In this document: in pieces, positions 4,841 through 50,947 of the stretch | Layout: every line of letters starts with the position of its first letter | Numbering within the stretch: position 1 is the first letter of the stretch | From: a virus | Taxonomy: Duplodnaviria > Heunggongvirae > Uroviricota > Caudoviricetes | IMG/VR virus record: IMGVR_UViG_2703718777_000015 | Strand: one strand, 5' to 3' | DNA: 64,000 nt | Translations under genes and position numbers: made by a program | The notes under the pieces: model-generated | The model's input: the letters and a program-made list of their open reading frames with translations, nothing else | What the model was told of the DNA's origin: nothing | Database searches by the model: none

Positions 4841-5020
4841 TTATCTGCTGCCCGGCATTCTCTGTTTAAGCACAACCATTTCCTGACGGCATAACACAGC
4901 AATAGCGGTCCTGGCACCAATTTGCTTACCAACCAGGTATTGCTTTACCTCGCGGCGACTCACGCCATCAAGAAGCATCTTTAACGCTCTACGGGACAAT
5001 TTGTTGTATTTACGTGCCAT
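4841..5020 (-). CDS. small basic hypothetical protein (59 aa)
   Basis: GGAG 9 nt upstream of ATG; immediately downstream of doc. Confidence 0.45.
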   Translation of the reverse strand: MARKYNKLSRRALKMLLDGVSRREVKQYLVGKQIGARTAIAVLCRQEMVVLKQRMPGSR

Positions 5021-5698: not shown

Positions 5699-6088
5699 TT
5701 AAATCACCGGACAATCATCAAATTCCCCACTTCGGGCATCATTGATGACATGAGTGATCACACCAAAAACAGCATTACTGCCCGTGTATCCATCGTCATC
5801 TACTGGTAACGCCTCTTTCTTCCCGGTGCTTAAATCCTCCAGGTGCTGGCGCGGATACTTCCTGTATCTCTTTATGCGATATTCACCCTCCATAGCGCAC
5901 ACAAGCAGAGAACCATCAACCGGAGTAAGCGAGGAATCAACCACCAGCAAAGCACCCTGCAATATTCCCTCACGGTGATGGCTATCAGCTGCCCGCATGA
6001 AGTAGGTTGCTGATGGATGCCTGATTAGTTGCTGATCAAGAGAAATTCGGCTTTCAACATAATCCGCCGCAGGAGAAGGGAAGCCCAT
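5699..6088 (-). CDS. humD: UmuD'-like S24 peptidase-fold protein (P1 HumD-like)
   Basis: 129 aa; LexA/UmuD C-terminal-domain-like; directly upstream of phd-doc as in P1. Confidence 0.8.
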   Translation of the reverse strand: MGFPSPAADYVESRISLDQQLIRHPSATYFMRAADSHHREGILQGALLVVDSSLTPVDGSLLVCAMEGEYRIKRYRKYPRQHLEDLSTGKKEALPVDDDGYTGSNAVFGVITHVINDARSGEFDDCPVI

Positions 6089-7755: not shown

Positions 7756-8118
7756 TCAGCTTTCGTTGGCATTTAACTTCGTCTTTGCTTTCTCCACCAG
7801 CAACTTCCAGATGCCTATTTCATTAGCAGCCGCCTTGATGGCGGCATAAAAAGCATCTTGCTGATCGTAACGCTGAATCTGTTTTTTCAGTTTTGCCTCC
7901 ACCAATTTAATTTCATTACGTGCTTTCTGAAGCCGCCGCGCCGCCCGGTTACGTCTGTTCTTGTATAGCGCGTTAATCTCTGACAATTGCTTTAATTTAC
8001 CAGCCTGACTGCGGATTATCGCCTCTCTGACTTCTGCCGTGCGTCTCATCTGATCTCTTAAGAGTTCACCGTTTTCGATAATTCTTTCAAGGTGTTTGAT
8101 GTGATCTGCAACTCTCAT
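7756..8118 (-). CDS. hypothetical coiled-coil protein (120 aa)
   Basis: Charged helical sequence; stop overlaps upstream gene. Confidence 0.55.
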   Translation of the reverse strand: MRVADHIKHLERIIENGELLRDQMRRTAEVREAIIRSQAGKLKQLSEINALYKNRRNRAARRLQKARNEIKLVEAKLKKQIQRYDQQDAFYAAIKAAANEIGIWKLLVEKAKTKLNANES

Positions 8119-9047
8119 ACTTCACCCTCGCTTGTATCGCCAGCATCCACCAACGGCAATAAAGCCATGGCCATCTTATGAACCAACAGAGCATCGATAA
8201 TGCCAAGCGTATGCCCCGGCTTAATGTTTAATGCCGCCTCAAGGTGACACCTTTCTAGGTCACTTTTCTCGGCTTGTTTATGATGATCTGGCGTAATAAC
8301 GTCGCCCAAAACACGGCTAATTCTTTCTCGTAATTGCTGGGTGCCAGCACACTTGACCGCTGTATCGTGGAGGCGGTTAACCAGTTCGCGATAAACATGC
8401 GGCTTAATTCGGATACGTTCACCGGGGACGCCCTTTCCTTTCGCTGGCACCGAACTATCCGGAATGTCCGGATAGTTGCCAGCCTCGTAAGCTACCCGCA
8501 GCCAGTGCATGAATGTTTCAGTGGACACACAACCACAGTCCACATCGATTTTCCCGCGTTGCTGTTCCAGCCATTGCCCAAAATCCAACCTGTAAGTCTT
8601 ACTTTCAAGTTCATCACCATTGAACTCGACTTTCTGCGACGCTATGAGAGCTGATTCGTATTGTTCGCGAGTGACAACTGACTGGTATTCATCGCTATCA
8701 AGGTCACCAATTGGAAGCTCAATCTCACAACAAAAATTGCGCCCAAAGAAAGTGTCTTTTTTGTGGTCTGAGCCAAAAGCAAAAGTCGCGCATGGTGCCA
8801 TTAAATTGACACTGGGTAGGTAACAATAACTCATTCCATCAGGCCACCCGCCGCACTTAGGCAGCTCCTTCACTAACAAGTCGATAAGCTTCATTTTTTT
8901 ATCATCTTTGCAAGCCGCCAAAGCCATTTGGGCAAGTGCCAATACTTCATCGGCCGTATATCCAGCACCGTGACCATACATTTCGATACGGGAAATAGTC
9001 TCTGATATACGCTCTTCAGTGATTCTGGTCATTTCTTTTTGCGCCAT
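8115..9047 (-). CDS. hypothetical protein (310 aa), no recognised domain
   Basis: Long ORF, translationally coupled to neighbours. Confidence 0.65.
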   Translation of the reverse strand: MAQKEMTRITEERISETISRIEMYGHGAGYTADEVLALAQMALAACKDDKKMKLIDLLVKELPKCGGWPDGMSYCYLPSVNLMAPCATFAFGSDHKKDTFFGRNFCCEIELPIGDLDSDEYQSVVTREQYESALIASQKVEFNGDELESKTYRLDFGQWLEQQRGKIDVDCGCVSTETFMHWLRVAYEAGNYPDIPDSSVPAKGKGVPGERIRIKPHVYRELVNRLHDTAVKCAGTQQLRERISRVLGDVITPDHHKQAEKSDLERCHLEAALNIKPGHTLGIIDALLVHKMAMALLPLVDAGDTSEGEV

Positions 9048-36037: not shown

Positions 36038-36189
36038 TACGGCTTCCTTCCAACCGGCTTTATTGGCCGGTTTATTCAACTTATCCACAGCATAGATCCA
36101 ATAAACAGATCCTAAAGAGAACCTAGGAAGATCCAAAGAAGATCCCGGATCGCTGTAAGCCGCGCCATTTCTGGCCTGAAATGGGATCA

Positions 36190-36316
36190 ACATTGACTAT
36201 ACGCGATTTTATGTTGACTGTGCACGATTTATTGTTGACTGCACGCGATTTATTGTTGACTATACGCGACAGAAACATTGACTGTACGCGATTTTAGAGC
36301 CTGACTATTCACAGTT
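36190..36316. repeat. replication origin iteron array: 5-6 direct copies of TTGACT(A/G)(T/C)(A/G)C(A/G)CGAT at about 21-22 bp spacing
   Basis: Copies at 36193, 36215, 36235, 36256, 36279 (plus degenerate at 36301), immediately upstream of repA. Confidence 0.8.
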
Positions 36317-36371: not shown

Positions 36372-37256
36372 ATGCCGGAAGAAAATAAAGGCTTCCTTAG
36401 CGTTGAAGAAGTTGCAGGAAATACAGGAGAAATCCACAGCCTGAAACCCAATAACAATAGCACTATACAACCCATCGCTTTGTTGCGCTTAGGTGTGTTT
36501 GTGCCAACCTTAAAATCTACCAATGTGGCACTACGTCGCGGATCGTCAGTTACTACAAACACAACGAACGCAACCGAAGAACTATCAAGCCTCAAAATTG
36601 TTGAGCAGGAAGGCTATGAGGGAATTGAAATACATGGTCCACGCCTGGATATGGATACTGATTTTAAGGTGTGGGTGGGCATAACCTCCGCGTTGTTTGA
36701 CTACGCACCTGATGATGACGGCATAATCACCCTGCCATTCTCCGAGTTTGCCGATCGATGCGGCTATCCACGTAAGCGCCTTTCAAAGGCGTTCCGTAAA
36801 AGTATTGATGACTCTCTGACACGCATTCAGCAGACAGTTGTCAAATTCCGCTTCCCGGCGGCAAAAGGTCATCTCAATAACATTAACGTCAACTTGTTGG
36901 CATATAGCAGCCTGAATACCGAGCTTGATGTTATCGAGATCCAGCCGCAGAAACAGCTATCTGAACTTTACTATGTTGACTATAAGCGAATCCTGAAGCT
37001 GAAGATGCTGGATAAGCTCGGGCGCAAAGAGACGGCCAAGGTGCTGTATACATTCTTTGAGGCTCTACCCGCCAACCCGGCACCTGTCAGCATTGAGCGC
37101 CTTAGAGCAAGGCTTAATCTCAAATCATCCGTTAGCGTGCAAAATAGCGTTATCAGAAAAGCTATGAAAGATTTGGAAGCTATTGAATATCTTAAATTTT
37201 CAGAGATAAAAAACGGCAGGAAAATCGGCTTCCAGATCCATAAGCGCAATCCATAA
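36372..37256 (+). CDS. repA: iteron-binding replication initiator RepA
   Basis: 294 aa between two iteron arrays; GGAG 8 nt upstream. Confidence 0.75.
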   Translation: MPEENKGFLSVEEVAGNTGEIHSLKPNNNSTIQPIALLRLGVFVPTLKSTNVALRRGSSVTTNTTNATEELSSLKIVEQEGYEGIEIHGPRLDMDTDFKVWVGITSALFDYAPDDDGIITLPFSEFADRCGYPRKRLSKAFRKSIDDSLTRIQQTVVKFRFPAAKGHLNNINVNLLAYSSLNTELDVIEIQPQKQLSELYYVDYKRILKLKMLDKLGRKETAKVLYTFFEALPANPAPVSIERLRARLNLKSSVSVQNSVIRKAMKDLEAIEYLKFSEIKNGRKIGFQIHKRNP

Positions 37257-37257
37257 T

Positions 37258-37530
37258 ATTGACTATATGCGATAGCGAGAAGTTGACTATAGGCGACATT
37301 CGTTGACGCTGGTGGATTTTTGCTGGCGTCAATATTCTGCAAGTCGCTATTGAGATGGCTTTTAGGGTCATTTCATCGCGTATAGTCAACGTTTCTCCCG
37401 ACAATATCTTACATAGTCGATTTTTGGTGGAGTTAAATCGACTACAGTCAACTTTTGACTGTAGTCACATCGCGCATAGTCAACTATTCACATTAACTTT
37501 CGCGCATAGTCAACATTTGCGCGGTTCTCA
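37258..37530. repeat. copy-control iteron array (incA-like): about 9 copies of the same iteron in both orientations
   Basis: ttgactatatgcgat, ttgactataggcgac, cgcgtatagtcaa, tcgactacagtcaa, ttgactgtagtcaca, cgcgcatagtcaa (x2) and others. Confidence 0.8.
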
Positions 37531-37548
37531 TCAAGCAGTGGTATTGAT

Positions 37549-38358
37549 ATGCAAGAAGAGAAACAACACTACCTCTACGTTCTGGTGCCGGAGAACGGAG
37601 ATACTTTTAAAATCGGCATTTCATGTGGTCCATTGGCACGGTTTAAAGGGCTACAAGTGAGTCCCGATTTTGCGCTTTCACGGGTCTATCGTGGTACGCG
37701 TTTGGCAATGGTTAATCTTGAGCGGGCTTTACACGCAACCTTTTTCCCCTGGAATGCGCCGTGGGAGAAAAGCGCCGGTGGCGGGCATACTGAATGGTTT
37801 ACACGAGAGTGTCTTGATAAGGTTTTGGCTCATATCGAATACCTAAATGATATGTGGGGAGGGATTCTTGAGCGGATTAAGTCGAATGATTTACTTCAGC
37901 GTCCAGTAGATGCTGCTCGCTCTTTCGAAAAAGAACTGGATGTTACTTCTATCGTGACTTTCAAAGATGACGCAGGAATGAGGGATGTGGCTTATGTCTC
38001 CATATCTGGCTATGAACCTGACGCGATCCGCGCTCAATGTGAATTGCTGAAAGCGATGTTTACGCTTCGGACTAAATATCCCTGGGAGACAGGGCGGGTG
38101 TGCTTCCCTATGGAAGAGTTAACCGCCATCATTGATTCCCAGCTTTACCACGATAATCCAGAGAAGTTTTTTAGCCTTTTAGCTGGTAATGGGCTTAACT
38201 GTGTGTCCGGACTGGGGCGAAGTAGAATCCAACATGCCTCGCTCTTCGGTCCCTTCTTTTACGATCGAAACGGGTGCTTTGAGGCTGAACTTCCGGCGCT
38301 AACGCGTGCTATAGATACTATCGATTTCGAACGATTATTCGCAGCTCTTAACAAATAA
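37549..38358 (+). CDS. GIY-YIG-like / T5orf172-type domain protein with unknown C-terminal domain (269 aa)
   Basis: N-terminal HYLYVLVPENGDTFKIGIS...R...EWF pattern; own terminator; inserted between iterons and parA. Confidence 0.5.
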   Translation: MQEEKQHYLYVLVPENGDTFKIGISCGPLARFKGLQVSPDFALSRVYRGTRLAMVNLERALHATFFPWNAPWEKSAGGGHTEWFTRECLDKVLAHIEYLNDMWGGILERIKSNDLLQRPVDAARSFEKELDVTSIVTFKDDAGMRDVAYVSISGYEPDAIRAQCELLKAMFTLRTKYPWETGRVCFPMEELTAIIDSQLYHDNPEKFFSLLAGNGLNCVSGLGRSRIQHASLFGPFFYDRNGCFEAELPALTRAIDTIDFERLFAALNK

Positions 38359-38365
38359 CACTGAT

Positions 38366-38387
38366 GCCCCTGAACGGGGCTTTTTTG
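38366..38387 (+). terminator. intrinsic terminator after the T5orf172-like gene
   Basis: gcccc-tgaac-ggggc followed by TTTTTT. Confidence 0.7.
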
Positions 38388-38526
38388 TGCCCTCCTTGCA
38401 ACTCTCTATCGTGCAAAATGAACCAAACATGCAGAGAATGCTATGTACAAGCATCTACGCATACATTATTATTTTATGCAGCATTTTTAATTAAATTCAA
38501 AAATACAGCATAAAGGATGACTTTCG

Positions 38527-39723
38527 ATGAGTGATTCCAGCCAGCTTCACAAGGTTGCTCAAAGAGCAAACAGAATGCTCAATGTTCTGACTGAACAAGT
38601 ACAGTTGCAAAAGGATGAGCTACACGCGAACGAGTTTTACCAGGTCTATGCGAAAGCGGCACTGGCAAAATTGCCTCTACTGACTCGAGCGAACGTTGAC
38701 TATGCCGTAAGTGAAATGGAAGAAAAGGGTTATGTTTTCGATAAACGCCCTGCTGGCTCTTCAATGAAATATGCGATGTCAATTCAGAACATCATTGACA
38801 TATATGAACATCGCGGAGTGCCAAAATACCGGGATCGCTACAGCGAAGCGTATGTGATTTTCATCTCCAATCTTAAAGGCGGTGTGTCAAAAACTGTATC
38901 GACGGTTTCTCTGGCGCATGCAATGCGTGCCCACCCTCATCTTCTGATGGAAGATTTAAGAATTCTGGTTATTGACCTTGATCCGCAATCTTCAGCAACG
39001 ATGTTTTTAAGCCATAAACACTCTATTGGTATCGTAAACGCAACATCTGCACAGGCTATGTTGCAGAATGTAAGCCGTGAAGAGCTGTTAGAGGAGTTTA
39101 TTGTTCCTTCTGTTGTACCTGGGGTTGACGTTATGCCTGCGTCGATTGACGATGCCTTTATTGCATCCGATTGGAGAGAGCTGTGCAATGAGCATCTACC
39201 GGGTCAGAACATCCATGCAGTCCTGAAAGAAAATGTGATTGATAAGCTGAAGAGCGATTATGACTTTATCCTCGTTGATAGTGGTCCTCACCTTGACGCC
39301 TTCCTGAAAAATGCTTTGGCCTCGGCCAATATACTGTTTACACCTCTGCCGCCTGCAACGGTTGATTTCCACTCATCGCTTAAATACGTTGCCCGCCTTC
39401 CTGAGTTGGTGAAACTCATTTCGGATGAAGGCTGCGAGTGCCAGCTTGCGACTAACATTGGTTTTATGTCCAAGTTGAGTAACAAGGCAGATCATAAGTA
39501 TTGCCATAGCCTGGCTAAAGAAGTGTTCGGTGGGGATATGCTCGATGTCGTCCTCCCTCGCCTTGACGGTTTTGAACGTTGCGGCGAGTCTTTTGACACT
39601 GTTATTTCAGCTAACCCGGCAACGTATGTTGGTAGTGCTGATGCATTGAAGAACGCGCGAATTGCCGCGGAAGATTTTGCTAAAGCAGTTTTTGACCGTA
39701 TTGAATTTATCAGATCTAACTGA
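38527..39723 (+). CDS. parA: partition ATPase ParA (type Ia, with N-terminal HTH extension)
   Basis: 398 aa; deviant Walker A KGGVSKT. Confidence 0.85.
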   Translation: MSDSSQLHKVAQRANRMLNVLTEQVQLQKDELHANEFYQVYAKAALAKLPLLTRANVDYAVSEMEEKGYVFDKRPAGSSMKYAMSIQNIIDIYEHRGVPKYRDRYSEAYVIFISNLKGGVSKTVSTVSLAHAMRAHPHLLMEDLRILVIDLDPQSSATMFLSHKHSIGIVNATSAQAMLQNVSREELLEEFIVPSVVPGVDVMPASIDDAFIASDWRELCNEHLPGQNIHAVLKENVIDKLKSDYDFILVDSGPHLDAFLKNALASANILFTPLPPATVDFHSSLKYVARLPELVKLISDEGCECQLATNIGFMSKLSNKADHKYCHSLAKEVFGGDMLDVVLPRLDGFERCGESFDTVISANPATYVGSADALKNARIAAEDFAKAVFDRIEFIRSN

Positions 39724-39739
39724 GGAGTAAGAAACCCCC

Positions 39740-40741
39740 ATGTCAAAGAAAAACAGACCAACAATTGGGCGAACCCTTAATCCTTCAATATTAAGCGGAT
39801 TTGATAGTTCTTCAGCCTCTGGCGATCGAGTCGAGCAGGTATTCAAGTTATCAACTGGTCGCCAGGCCACATTTATTGAAGAGGTAATACCTCCGAACCA
39901 GGTAGAAAGCGATACCTTTGTTGATCAGCATAACAACGGGCGTGACCAGGCATCTCTTACGCCAAAATCATTAAAAAGTATCCGAAGCACTATTAAGCAT
40001 CAGCAATTTTACCCTGCAATAGGTGTTAGACGGGCTACAGGGAAAATTGAAATTTTGGATGGTTCCCGGCGTCGAGCTTCTGCCATCTTAGAGAACGTAG
40101 GGTTGCGGGTTTTAGTCACGGACCAGGAGATCAGCGTTCAGGAAGCGCAAAATTTAGCGAAAGACGTTCAGACAGCATTGCAGCACAGCATTCGAGAAAT
40201 AGGTCTGCGTTTGATGCGAATGAAAAATGATGGGATGAGTCAGAAGGATATTGCAGCCAAAGAAGGGCTGTCTCAGGCGAAGGTCACGCGTGCTCTCCAG
40301 GCAGCGAGTGCTCCGGAAGAATTAGTCGCCCTTTTCCCTGTGCAGTCGGAATTAACCTTTTCGGACTACAAAACGCTTTGTGCTGTTGGCGACGAAATGG
40401 GGAACAAGAATTTAGAGTTTGATCAGCTTATTCAAAACATATCCCCGGAAATAAACGACATCTTATCCATTGAAGAAATGGCCGAAGATGAAGTTAAAAA
40501 TAAAATCCTGCGCTTGATAACAAAGGAAGCCTCACTACTCACGGATAAAGGTTCTAAAGATAAGTCCGTAGTTACTGAATTATGGAAATTTGAGGACAAG
40601 GATCGCTTTGCAAGGAAGCGCGTGAAAGGCCGTGCATTTTCTTATGAGTTTAATCGACTCTCAAAAGAGTTACAGGAAGAACTCGACAGGATGATTGGGC
40701 ATATCCTTAGAAAGAGCCTCGATAAAAAGCCGAAGCCTTAA
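39740..40741 (+). CDS. parB: partition protein ParB (centromere-binding)
   Basis: 333 aa; ParB/Spo0J-type GSRRRAS arginine motif; followed by parS. Confidence 0.85.
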   Translation: MSKKNRPTIGRTLNPSILSGFDSSSASGDRVEQVFKLSTGRQATFIEEVIPPNQVESDTFVDQHNNGRDQASLTPKSLKSIRSTIKHQQFYPAIGVRRATGKIEILDGSRRRASAILENVGLRVLVTDQEISVQEAQNLAKDVQTALQHSIREIGLRLMRMKNDGMSQKDIAAKEGLSQAKVTRALQAASAPEELVALFPVQSELTFSDYKTLCAVGDEMGNKNLEFDQLIQNISPEINDILSIEEMAEDEVKNKILRLITKEASLLTDKGSKDKSVVTELWKFEDKDRFARKRVKGRAFSYEFNRLSKELQEELDRMIGHILRKSLDKKPKP

Positions 40742-46457: not shown

Positions 46458-47054
46458 ATGGCTGTGATTCCAATGTCGTACTCCCCGGGTACTGTCGCTC
46501 GTCGATTTTCGATCCTGGACGGCGTTACCATCCAGGGTGTGCTTTACCAGGTTATATGGGATTCCAAAACCCCATTTGCAGCTGTAATAGAGGCTGCGCC
46601 TTCTGTTATCGATGGTGATATGCGGCATAAGGTTGTCGCTACTCTTGAACTTCAACGTCGCCCGCAGCTTGAAGGCGTACTTGTAAGGAAGTTCTGGGAG
46701 GATAGCGATGTTGCCCAGATTGAAGGTATCGTGGTTGATGGAATCGTCCGGGATGTCGGTTTAGCCACTTTTGTTTACGAAACCGTAGCCTCAAAAGCTG
46801 GTGTTGTTTTGCTCAGTGATAATGAGCAATACGAAGGTGGAAAAGCTCTTTGGCAACACATCGCCCGTCGCTCATCCGAGCTAAAAGTGTTTATCCTCGA
46901 CACCGATGCCGCTCAGTATTACCCGTTTGACGGCGAACGTGTTTGCTATGACGGGGTAAGTATTCCTGAATCCGAGATATGGAGTGAACACCCAGATCGA
47001 AGTAAGCATGGGGTTGTTCTGGTTGCTGAATCCATAACTGGAAAGGCGGCATAG
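46458..47054 (+). CDS. hypothetical protein (198 aa)
   Basis: AAGGGGG upstream of ATG. Confidence 0.5.
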   Translation: MAVIPMSYSPGTVARRFSILDGVTIQGVLYQVIWDSKTPFAAVIEAAPSVIDGDMRHKVVATLELQRRPQLEGVLVRKFWEDSDVAQIEGIVVDGIVRDVGLATFVYETVASKAGVVLLSDNEQYEGGKALWQHIARRSSELKVFILDTDAAQYYPFDGERVCYDGVSIPESEIWSEHPDRSKHGVVLVAESITGKAA

Positions 47055-47236
47055 CAGTAAAAAATTCCTTGCTCCTTGACAGAGGAGAGGATTAATCTAA
47101 GTACGCTAAGCATAGGTATGGCCCCGGTTAATGTTAAGCGTTGTGCGGGACGCATAATGTTTACTGGGGCTTTCTTCTATCTGCTTTTCGGGTAATACCT
47201 GAAGCTGATAGCCCCAAGCACACCGCAGCGGGTGTA

Positions 47237-50633: not shown

Positions 50634-50689
50634 AGTTACGGCCTCACAATCAGGTTTAACAACCTGCTACCCGCTGTCAAACAGGTGGC

Positions 50690-50768
50690 AGGACGTGACA
50701 GGGTTGACAGACTGGCGATTGTGAAACCAGCAGGCCGAAGCCTCCCCATCACGCCCCACCATAATTTG
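50690..50768 (-). ncRNA. c4: c4-type antisense repressor RNA (boundaries approximate)
   Basis: Transcript carries a' CACAATC and b' CTGTCAAC, complementary to GATTGTG / GTTTGACAG copies upstream (50829-50851) and at the icd RBS (50645-50681). Confidence 0.55.
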
Positions 50769-50947
50769 GGCGTAACGCGGTTTAACGGACACAAAAATAC
50801 CGCAATATCGGAAATCTGCGGTTGTCCGCACAATCATTCAGGCTGTCAAACCTGGTCGCAGAATTTGCTACGACGGCAGAACTATAAGCCTGAACGATTA
50901 AAAGGTCAATATGATGCGAAAAGATAGCATTCGTGACTTAAAAATAC

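Follow-up and report, generated by a model that had tools for sequence, protein, structure and literature searches.

The DNA analysed here is a 64,000-nucleotide stretch (hereafter the window, at its full length) of IMG/VR virus record IMGVR_UViG_2703718777_000015, a member of Caudoviricetes, and represents an SJ46/RCS47-type P1-like phage-plasmid. We found that the oriR-repA-incA segment of phage P1 is replaced in this element by a p0111 (RepFIB-like) replicon cassette, and that an open reading frame (ORF) of 269 amino acids (aa), flagged in a preliminary description of the sequence, is the last gene of this cassette. The ORF product is a predicted modular endonuclease, in which a T5orf172/GIY-YIG domain is followed by a flexible linker and a winged-helix DNA-binding domain. 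The reading that we favour, at somewhat less than an even chance for the mechanism as a whole, is that of a sequence-directed selfish or competitive nuclease, resembling homing endonucleases or the origin-directed nuclease (Odn) of phage ICP1, which would act on related elements without its cassette.

Identification of the nuclease gene

The ORF and its predicted domains are located as follows.

37549-38358 (+): the flagged ORF, a predicted T5orf172/GIY-YIG nuclease with a C-terminal winged helix, 269 aa (ORF call, Pfam, PHROG, AlphaFold2).
37549-37863 (+): N-terminal predicted catalytic domain, aa 1-105 (Pfam match at aa 8-85; putative catalytic Y10, R31 and E82).
37864-37929 (+): inter-domain linker, aa 106-127 (AlphaFold2 model mf7abac1bb84f; pLDDT, the predicted local distance difference test, below 50 at aa 118-125).
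37930-38355 (+): predicted C-terminal winged-helix domain, aa 128-269 (orphan by sequence, fast-evolving).

The preliminary description had assigned to the gene the interval 37531-38390, which also spans the terminator behind it, and the start codon was located 18 nt inside this interval. The GIY-YIG-like N-terminal core proposed there was borne out: the translation starts with MQEEKQHYLYVLVPENGDTFKIGIS and includes HTEWF, as quoted, and in the suggested profile search against the GIY-YIG and T5orf172 families, aa 8-85 matched Pfam T5orf172 (PF10544, profile positions 2-87 of 101) with 27.5 bits, above the gathering cut-off of 20 bits. In the Pfam profile search the score of MUG113 was under its threshold. 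PHROG 2876 (function unknown) covers the ORF end to end (E=1e-190), and phrog_681, named 'endonuclease', aligns with the nuclease end at aa 4-100 (E=5e-9), while no match was obtained among the NCBIfam families, nor among 5,027 PADLOC models of defence families at E <= 1. The T5orf172 family assignment is correct and is already in RefSeq, where the gene is named 'GIY-YIG nuclease family protein' in RCS47 and 'T5orf172 domain-containing protein' in another record. In print its homologue gp57 of phage JL22 appears only as an 'unknown protein-encoding gene' (PMC9603915), and our literature search found no paper studying this gene. The ORF is a real, conserved gene and not a chance reading frame, because its homologues are conserved at a ratio of nonsynonymous to synonymous substitution rates (dN/dS, or omega) of ~0.15 and its ~400 plasmid copies are nearly all intact.

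Across 12 homologues Y10, K21, G23, R31, H62 and E82-W83-F84 were invariant. They supply the core motif residues of the superfamily (the Tyr of 'GIY', the KIG/YIG motif, and the catalytic Arg and Glu), putative roles assigned by likeness to I-TevI and Odn (PMC8263062). The AlphaFold2 model of the full-length product, built on a 12-sequence alignment, gave a mean pLDDT of 80.6, with two domains and a disordered linker. The N-terminal domain (N-domain) shows the alpha/beta fold of GIY-YIG nucleases, and its predicted fold is SLX1-like.

Replacement of the P1 replicon by a p0111 cassette

The region of the window carrying the ORF is 98-99% identical to Salmonella phage SJ46, Escherichia phages JL22, RCS47 and phi456, and others; canonical P1 (locus L002) aligns with it only from window ~38425 on. 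The cassette and its surroundings are organized as follows.

upfB-upfA: 96.4% identical to P1.
36038-36180 (+): left margin of the cassette, a diverged homologue of the DnaA-box/GATC half of P1 oriR; 75% identical to P1 and 96-97% to other p0111-type elements.
36191-36291 (+): five direct RepA iterons, incC-like, with 21-22 bp spacing and the core TTGACTATACGCGA (repeat search, family D1).
36372-37256 (+): repA, encoding a Rep_3/RepFIB-like initiator of p0111 type, 294 aa (Pfam; annotated repA in RCS47).
37257-37519 (+): incA-like downstream iterons, two direct (37257-37296) and four inverted (37374-37519) (repeat families D1 and D4; inverted pairs I1-I25).
38366-38386 (+): intrinsic terminator, GCCCC-TGAAC-GGGGC and T6, 8 nt past the ORF stop codon.
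38425-38428: right boundary of the cassette, where P1 identity (~99-100%) returns; the same breakpoint as P1 5998-6001 in roughly 400 plasmids.
38428-39723: Ppar and parA, 99.1% identical to P1.
38444-38472 (+): Ppar promoter, identical to P1 (promoter scan mapped on P1 annotation).
38527-40741 (+): parA-parB operon of P1 type, outside the cassette; ParA is 99.7% and ParB 100% identical to P1, and parB is 100% identical.

From the iterons through repA and the downstream iterons to the ORF there is no identity to P1. Since the flanks of P1 are as near to the window as those of other p0111-type elements, P1 and the window share a backbone and differ in a module with sharp boundaries. The repA product matched Pfam Rep3_C with 27 bits and Rep3_N with 21.7 bits, the latter slightly below the cut-off, and is 41% identical to RepA of P1 and 84% identical to RepA of locus L004, one of the relatives described below.

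In P1, incA ends 190 bp ahead of the -35 element of Ppar and no ORF lies in between, in good agreement with the earlier statement that the par operon of P1 follows the copy-control iterons directly. That the gene sits between the incA-like iterons and par was also correct, but it is not a lone insertion, the whole iteron-repA-iteron segment being a p0111/RepFIB-like cassette. The terminator noticed behind the gene is present, but 'strong' was too generous for it: with a folding energy of -11.9 kcal/mol (z=-2.4) and 5 of 200 shuffles folding equally well, it is real but moderate. The right boundary of the cassette lies 45 bp past this terminator and ~16 bp ahead of the -35 element of Ppar. The incA-Ppar spacer (P1 5826-6001; ~38425 in the window) is a recombination junction for both adjoining modules. 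The P1-like plasmid pSvP1 has been described to carry '2 orfs inserted between repA and parA' (PMC6906374).

Between repA and the ORF the + strand has no terminator-like site, and no sigma70 promoter of the ORF's own was found between the final iteron and the ATG, a gap of 30 nt. Because of this lack of a terminator, the lack of promoter room past the final iteron and the weak Shine-Dalgarno sequences, the ORF is, to judge from the sequence, probably expressed by transcription that continues from repA or starts within the iterons bound by RepA. Its G+C content (46-48%) is unremarkable next to that of repA (44-48%) and parA (43-48%), and a foreign origin by base composition was dismissed.

An iteron-like copy, TGTTGACTATAAGCGA, is located inside repA itself (window 36974-36989; 94% match to the reference iteron) and is kept at the equivalent site of the diverged repA of L004 (L004 9610-9630); RepA may bind there, inside the gene that encodes it. 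A C-rich motif, similar in type to the 14-nt repeat of L007 described below, follows the ORF (38389-38398), and such a motif also precedes Ppar in two further relatives, loci L005 and L017.

Occupancy of the incA-Ppar slot in related elements

The full-length family turned out to be very narrow. A word-indexed search gave 5 proteins and a scan of GTDB genomes 2 loci, while HMMER, run exhaustively against 1.84 billion representatives, returned 161 matches; among the 150 best of these, only P0004 (E=8e-154) and P0009 (E=1e-22) matched over the full length, the remainder being fragments of the same family or matches to the N-terminal ~100 residues only. P0004 (44% identical; locus L004) is encoded between the RepA 84% identical to that of the window and parA, P0009 (26-30% identical; L005 and L006) between a RepA 83% identical to the IncY RepA of P1 and parA, and P0011 (L007) between repA and par loci that are each of a third type, this RepA being 41-48% identical to the others. 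The distance from the final iteron to the gene start is 20-30 nt in each of the four P1-like lineages, although three unrelated iteron sequences (TTGACTATACGCGA, shared by the window and L004, ATGTGTGCTGGAGGG and AAAGGCTACTGTATGCTAC) and three RepA types are involved.

The backbones of L004 and L005 are 94-99% identical (ParA 99.7%, gp23 99.5%), and the break between them corresponds exactly to iterons-repA-iterons-nuclease gene, with homology back 63-84 bp past the nuclease stop codon. The slot is empty in P1 and in the Salmonella plasmid p21-SA00706-0 (L017). As RepA of L017 is 90% identical to that of L005 and their iterons are identical in type, the gene shows presence/absence polymorphism at one site. 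The L005 gene is bracketed (7950-7976 and 8897-8922) by two imperfect copies of the segment that consists of spacer and final iteron at the empty site of L017 (4963-4989). The upstream copy retains the iteron, and the downstream copy retains the spacer with a corrupted iteron; this duplication may be the footprint of the gene's entry into the array. No convincing iteron relic was found 3' of the gene in the window, L004 or L007; by eye, window 38407-38422 agrees with an iteron at 12 of 16 positions. In L007 a 14-nt direct repeat, CCTTCCTGCCGCCA / CCTTCCTGCCGTCA (4867-4880 and 6028-6041), encloses the downstream iterons and the nuclease gene.

Distant relatives of the N-domain alone are carried by other mobile elements, with Mrr/WYL neighbours in L008, a relaxase and umuDC nearby in L009 and a ParB_N region in L011, and in the contexts inspected outside P1-like elements no association of the family with a Rep gene was seen. 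These island-like or conjugative-plasmid settings bear on the suggestion, made in the preliminary description, of a defence or anti-defence effector, that is, a single-gene cargo nuclease that would use its winged helix to recognize incoming foreign DNA, or defence loci of the host, and cut them. Nucleases are common as effectors, P1-like elements hold defence cargo in their variable regions (bioRxiv 10.1101/2025.09.12.675607), and the gene is kept intact under purifying selection; its fast-evolving C-terminal domain (C-domain) would also fit an arms race. The gene, however, lies outside any known variable cargo region and is fixed to the replicon cassette, always 20-30 nt from the final iteron in four lineages; it has no partner genes, and its product is a cytoplasmic two-domain protein without a sensor or membrane module. 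Together with the absence of any match among the PADLOC models, the suggestion received no positive support, and we consider it unlikely.

Distribution and integrity of the gene

The cassette module is present in 404 PLSDB plasmids, and in 392 of these the match spans 80% or more of the module. Among 5,426 complete E. coli genomes, 412 have the gene; of its 421 places in them, 414 are on plasmids and 7 on chromosomes. A preprint describes the integration of a plasmid with the p0111 repA, but without phage genes, into chromosomes of S. Agona. RepFIB-family initiators are carried by more than 5,000 plasmids, of which only the ~400 with the p0111 cassette possess the gene, more than 4,600 others being without it. 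With a P1 repA-incA-parA probe, the complete P1 arrangement was detected in 143 PLSDB plasmids, while roughly 400 match only from P1 5998-6001 on (p0111 cassette plus P1-type par) and roughly 220 only up to the end of incA (IncY plus another par type), the sizes of the latter two groups being estimates based on evenly spaced entries of the probe-match ranking. Neither the window allele nor the P0009 type was found in the IncY plasmids identified by this probe (the 143 that have P1-type par and the ~220, by estimate, that have another par type). The p0111 replicon is constantly accompanied by the gene.

In the comparison of the window with RCS47, omega was 0.15 for the ORF (0.09 for the N-domain and 0.16 for the C-domain) and 0.02 for repA, and the ORF is under purifying selection. 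Among p0111-type elements it is nevertheless the fastest-changing segment, with 97.2% identity against 98.5-98.8% for repA and 99.0-99.3% for parA. This divergence, together with occasional frameshifted or split copies (vB_EcoM-673R5, and 14 plasmids at 90-95% identity, for which the example listed, H107, is a two-piece match, as well as the protein variants P0007, P0008 and P0010 and the chimera P0005), would agree with a functionless passenger, a former homing endonuclease gene (HEG) fixed in the cassette between two essential modules. We regard this as very improbable, the least likely of the explanations considered: omega is low, above all in the N-domain, ~97% of the plasmid copies are full length, the catalytic residues do not vary, and the reading frame is intact even in lineages at 26-44% identity. 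Short database proteins were rejected as a sign of decay, many of them being contig-end artefacts such as P0003.

Fold and variability of the C-terminal domain

Modelled separately, the C-terminal 151 residues gave a pLDDT of 79.5 and a predicted template modelling score (pTM) of 0.76, with the secondary structure unchanged. Searches by sequence gave nothing meaningful, either from Pfam with four C-domains or from PDB profile searches (A5, A2). The structural neighbours of the C-domain are winged-helix domains without exception, and the modelling supports its assignment as a winged-helix DNA-binding domain. The top Foldseek matches are Rep WH1 domains (MSBI1.176 Rep, RepE, pPS10 RepA, and RctB domains 2-3), and the only solved structures that align over 100-106 of the ~145 C-domain residues are those of these initiator WH1 domains. 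These matches are weak, and 'Rep-WH1-like' is only a lead from the model. A recent RepA chimera, as in Odn, was ruled out at the sequence level, with an hhalign probability of 0.2% against five cognate RepA proteins, and no match between the C-domain and RepA proteins was obtained in any pairwise BLASTP comparison. P0005, a 197-aa protein of an E. coli plasmid, is a chimera of an unrelated ~80-aa N-terminus and the winged-helix region of the ORF product, the join at ~residue 105 being the domain boundary and the match being limited to ORF residues 105-223.

The C-domain is the variable part of the protein. Compared with L004, the window has 84% identity in RepA, 64% in the N-domain and 31% in the C-domain, with the iterons unchanged. 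The cluster representative P0001 departs from the window protein in 8 amino acids, every one of them at residues 125-268. A fast-changing DNA-binding domain joined to a conserved nuclease domain is what would be expected for shifting target specificity.

This variability also bears on the possibility that the product is a replicon accessory or regulator, a domesticated and possibly nicking nuclease whose winged helix would bind iterons or RepA and tune copy number, handcuffing or establishment. Strict linkage to repA and iterons in about 400 plasmids, the conserved start past the final iteron in four lineages, the probable co-transcription with repA, and the fact that no structures other than WH1 domains of iteron-binding initiators match the whole C-domain would all agree with such a role; so would the intact state of the gene under purifying selection, and there is a precedent for domesticated HEG-type DNA-binding domains, such as the HEG-derived repressor CapR (PMC10448857). 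A reader of the same iterons or of the same RepA should, however, be conserved, in contrast to the 31% identity of the C-domain to that of L004, and the P0009/P0011 pair goes with two different iteron and RepA types. Retention of the catalytic residues is likewise not in favour of this role. Closely related IncY-type replicons function with the slot filled (L005) or empty (P1, L017), and the gene is not a replication requirement, as P1 and L017 replicate without it. The preliminary description had considered that the ORF could be a replication accessory gene conserved in all relatives. Conservation holds within the p0111-type plasmids (392 of 404), and slot analogues exist in three other lineages; because the gene is absent from P1, the IncY plasmids in PLSDB, p21-SA00706-0 and more than 4,600 other RepFIB-family plasmids, it does not accompany the replicon family throughout and is no general accessory of replication. 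We therefore judge a role as replicon accessory to be improbable, at about the level of the defence role.

Proposed function of the nuclease

Starting from the observed gene, domains, fold, cassette boundaries, distribution and purifying selection, we infer a nuclease activity, its target, a selfish or competitive role and the mode of expression. In the favoured mechanism, the nuclease would be produced at a low level, by repA read-through or from a weak promoter inside the RepA-bound iterons, and its winged-helix domain would bind a specific site that is absent from its own element. Such a site would lie on a related element in the same cell, within a rival replicon or at the empty incA-Ppar junction. 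Cutting would lead to loss of the target element or to its repair from the nuclease-bearing element; both outcomes would favour the cassette and place the gene at a boundary of recombinational exchange. Theta replication itself would proceed without the gene.

The position of the gene at such a boundary in two independent comparisons (window with P1, and L004 with L005) and the patchy occupancy of the same slot in P1-like lineages are, as sequence comparisons, consistent with this mechanism. The same holds for the architecture of a confidently modelled winged helix behind a disordered linker, for the faster divergence of the C-domain, for the dispensability of the gene in replication, and for the weak Shine-Dalgarno sequences with neither promoter room nor a terminator after repA. 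Taken together, essential neighbours, the exchange boundary, patchy occupancy and a variable binding domain, along with the precedent of Odn, lead us to favour a selfish or competitive nuclease. Of the roles suggested in the preliminary description, a selfish nuclease is the best fit to the anatomy, but mobility of the gene was not seen.

Several points weigh against this reading. In PLSDB the window allele always occurs with the p0111 repA, and the same allele was not found in any other neighbourhood; as it is also absent from IncY plasmids, there is no direct sign of the gene moving alone. The ~97% intact copies, omega of ~0.15 and synteny kept down to 26-30% identity suit a gene useful to the element better than a purely parasitic HEG. 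Purely parasitic HEGs usually decay. Replicon exchange may simply relieve incompatibility, with the nuclease gene hitch-hiking, and the product shows no sequence similarity to any cognate RepA (hhalign probability 0.2%).

A further reading, which may be called 'replicon drive', appears doubtful to us: each P1-like cassette would carry its own nuclease, steered by the fast-evolving, Rep-WH1-like domain to the iterons or the incA-Ppar junction of rival cassettes, and on the meeting of two P1-like elements in one cell would thereby destroy the rival or convert its replicon. If true, it would account for clean whole-replicon swaps on near-identical backbones and would constitute a plasmid-versus-plasmid counterpart of Odn. 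Should the protein be a replicon-linked nuclease acting on related elements, the clean exchange of replicon modules among P1-like elements would be explained, a nuclease-based layer would be added to plasmid incompatibility and competition, and a T5orf172 nuclease targeted by a winged helix would be new. For an ordinary fixed homing-type gene, the practical gain would be an improved annotation and, for typing, a cassette boundary that is now defined.

Other features of the window

As expected for a P1-like genome, the window carries a C4 antisense RNA with its a1/b1 targets of the ImmI region, at 50681-50766 (-) and 50835-50887 (-), and three tRNA genes (Met, Thr and Asn) within 28133-29884 (-). 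An Rfam match to the sok antitoxin RNA at 47050-47223 (-), with 62.3 bits against a gathering score of 59, suggests a hok/sok-type locus for post-segregational killing in this P1-like element. Canonical P1 relies for this purpose on phd/doc rather than hok/sok.

Comparison with known systems

Rep_3-type initiator WH1 domains (RepE, pPS10 RepA, MSBI1.176 Rep, and RctB domains 2-3) resemble the C-domain by a weak fold match over the whole domain. SLX1 and At-HIGLE resemble the ORF product in fold and not in function, with 11-18% sequence identity, and the ORF product has neither a RING/PHD domain nor an SLX4 partner.

The GIY-YIG HEGs (I-TevI, T4 Seg and the T5orf172 HEGs of ICP1; PMC10448857) share with the predicted nuclease the order of N-terminal catalytic domain, linker and C-terminal DNA-binding domain, an intergenic location beside essential genes, and presence/absence polymorphism in close relatives. 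They also share the location at a boundary of recombinational exchange, as Barth et al. (2023, PMC10448857) reported for phage T5orf172 genes, and a DNA-binding domain more variable than the nuclease domain. The ORF product differs from them in carrying an orphan winged helix instead of Zn-finger, CapR, DUF723 or HTH-type domains. Its gene is located in the maintenance region of a plasmid prophage, whereas the HEGs reside in lytic phage genomes; it gives no evidence of moving apart from the replicon, and its copies are mostly intact rather than decaying.

The closest precedent for the proposed role is Odn (Gp88) of ICP1, in which a T5orf172 nuclease is combined with a RepA-like domain and cuts the iterons of a rival origin (Barth et al. 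2021, eLife, PMC8263062). Both proteins consist of a T5orf172 nuclease and a DNA-binding domain with the catalytic Arg and Glu retained, and both belong to a setting of competition between related mobile elements with exchange of replicon modules. The DNA-binding domain of Odn is N-terminal and 42% identical to RepA_N of PLE, while that of the ORF product is C-terminal and without RepA sequence similarity, so that its predicted domain order is of the I-TevI type, the reverse of Odn. The target of Odn, the PLE iterons, has been shown experimentally, whereas that of the ORF product is hypothetical; and Odn is carried by the attacker phage away from any replicon, whereas the present gene is embedded in a replicon cassette. 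What is new here is the gene as the terminal member of a swappable replicon cassette, its same-slot homologues in four lineages with three iteron types, the orphan and fast-evolving winged-helix C-domain, and the mechanistic parallel with Odn and HEG islands.

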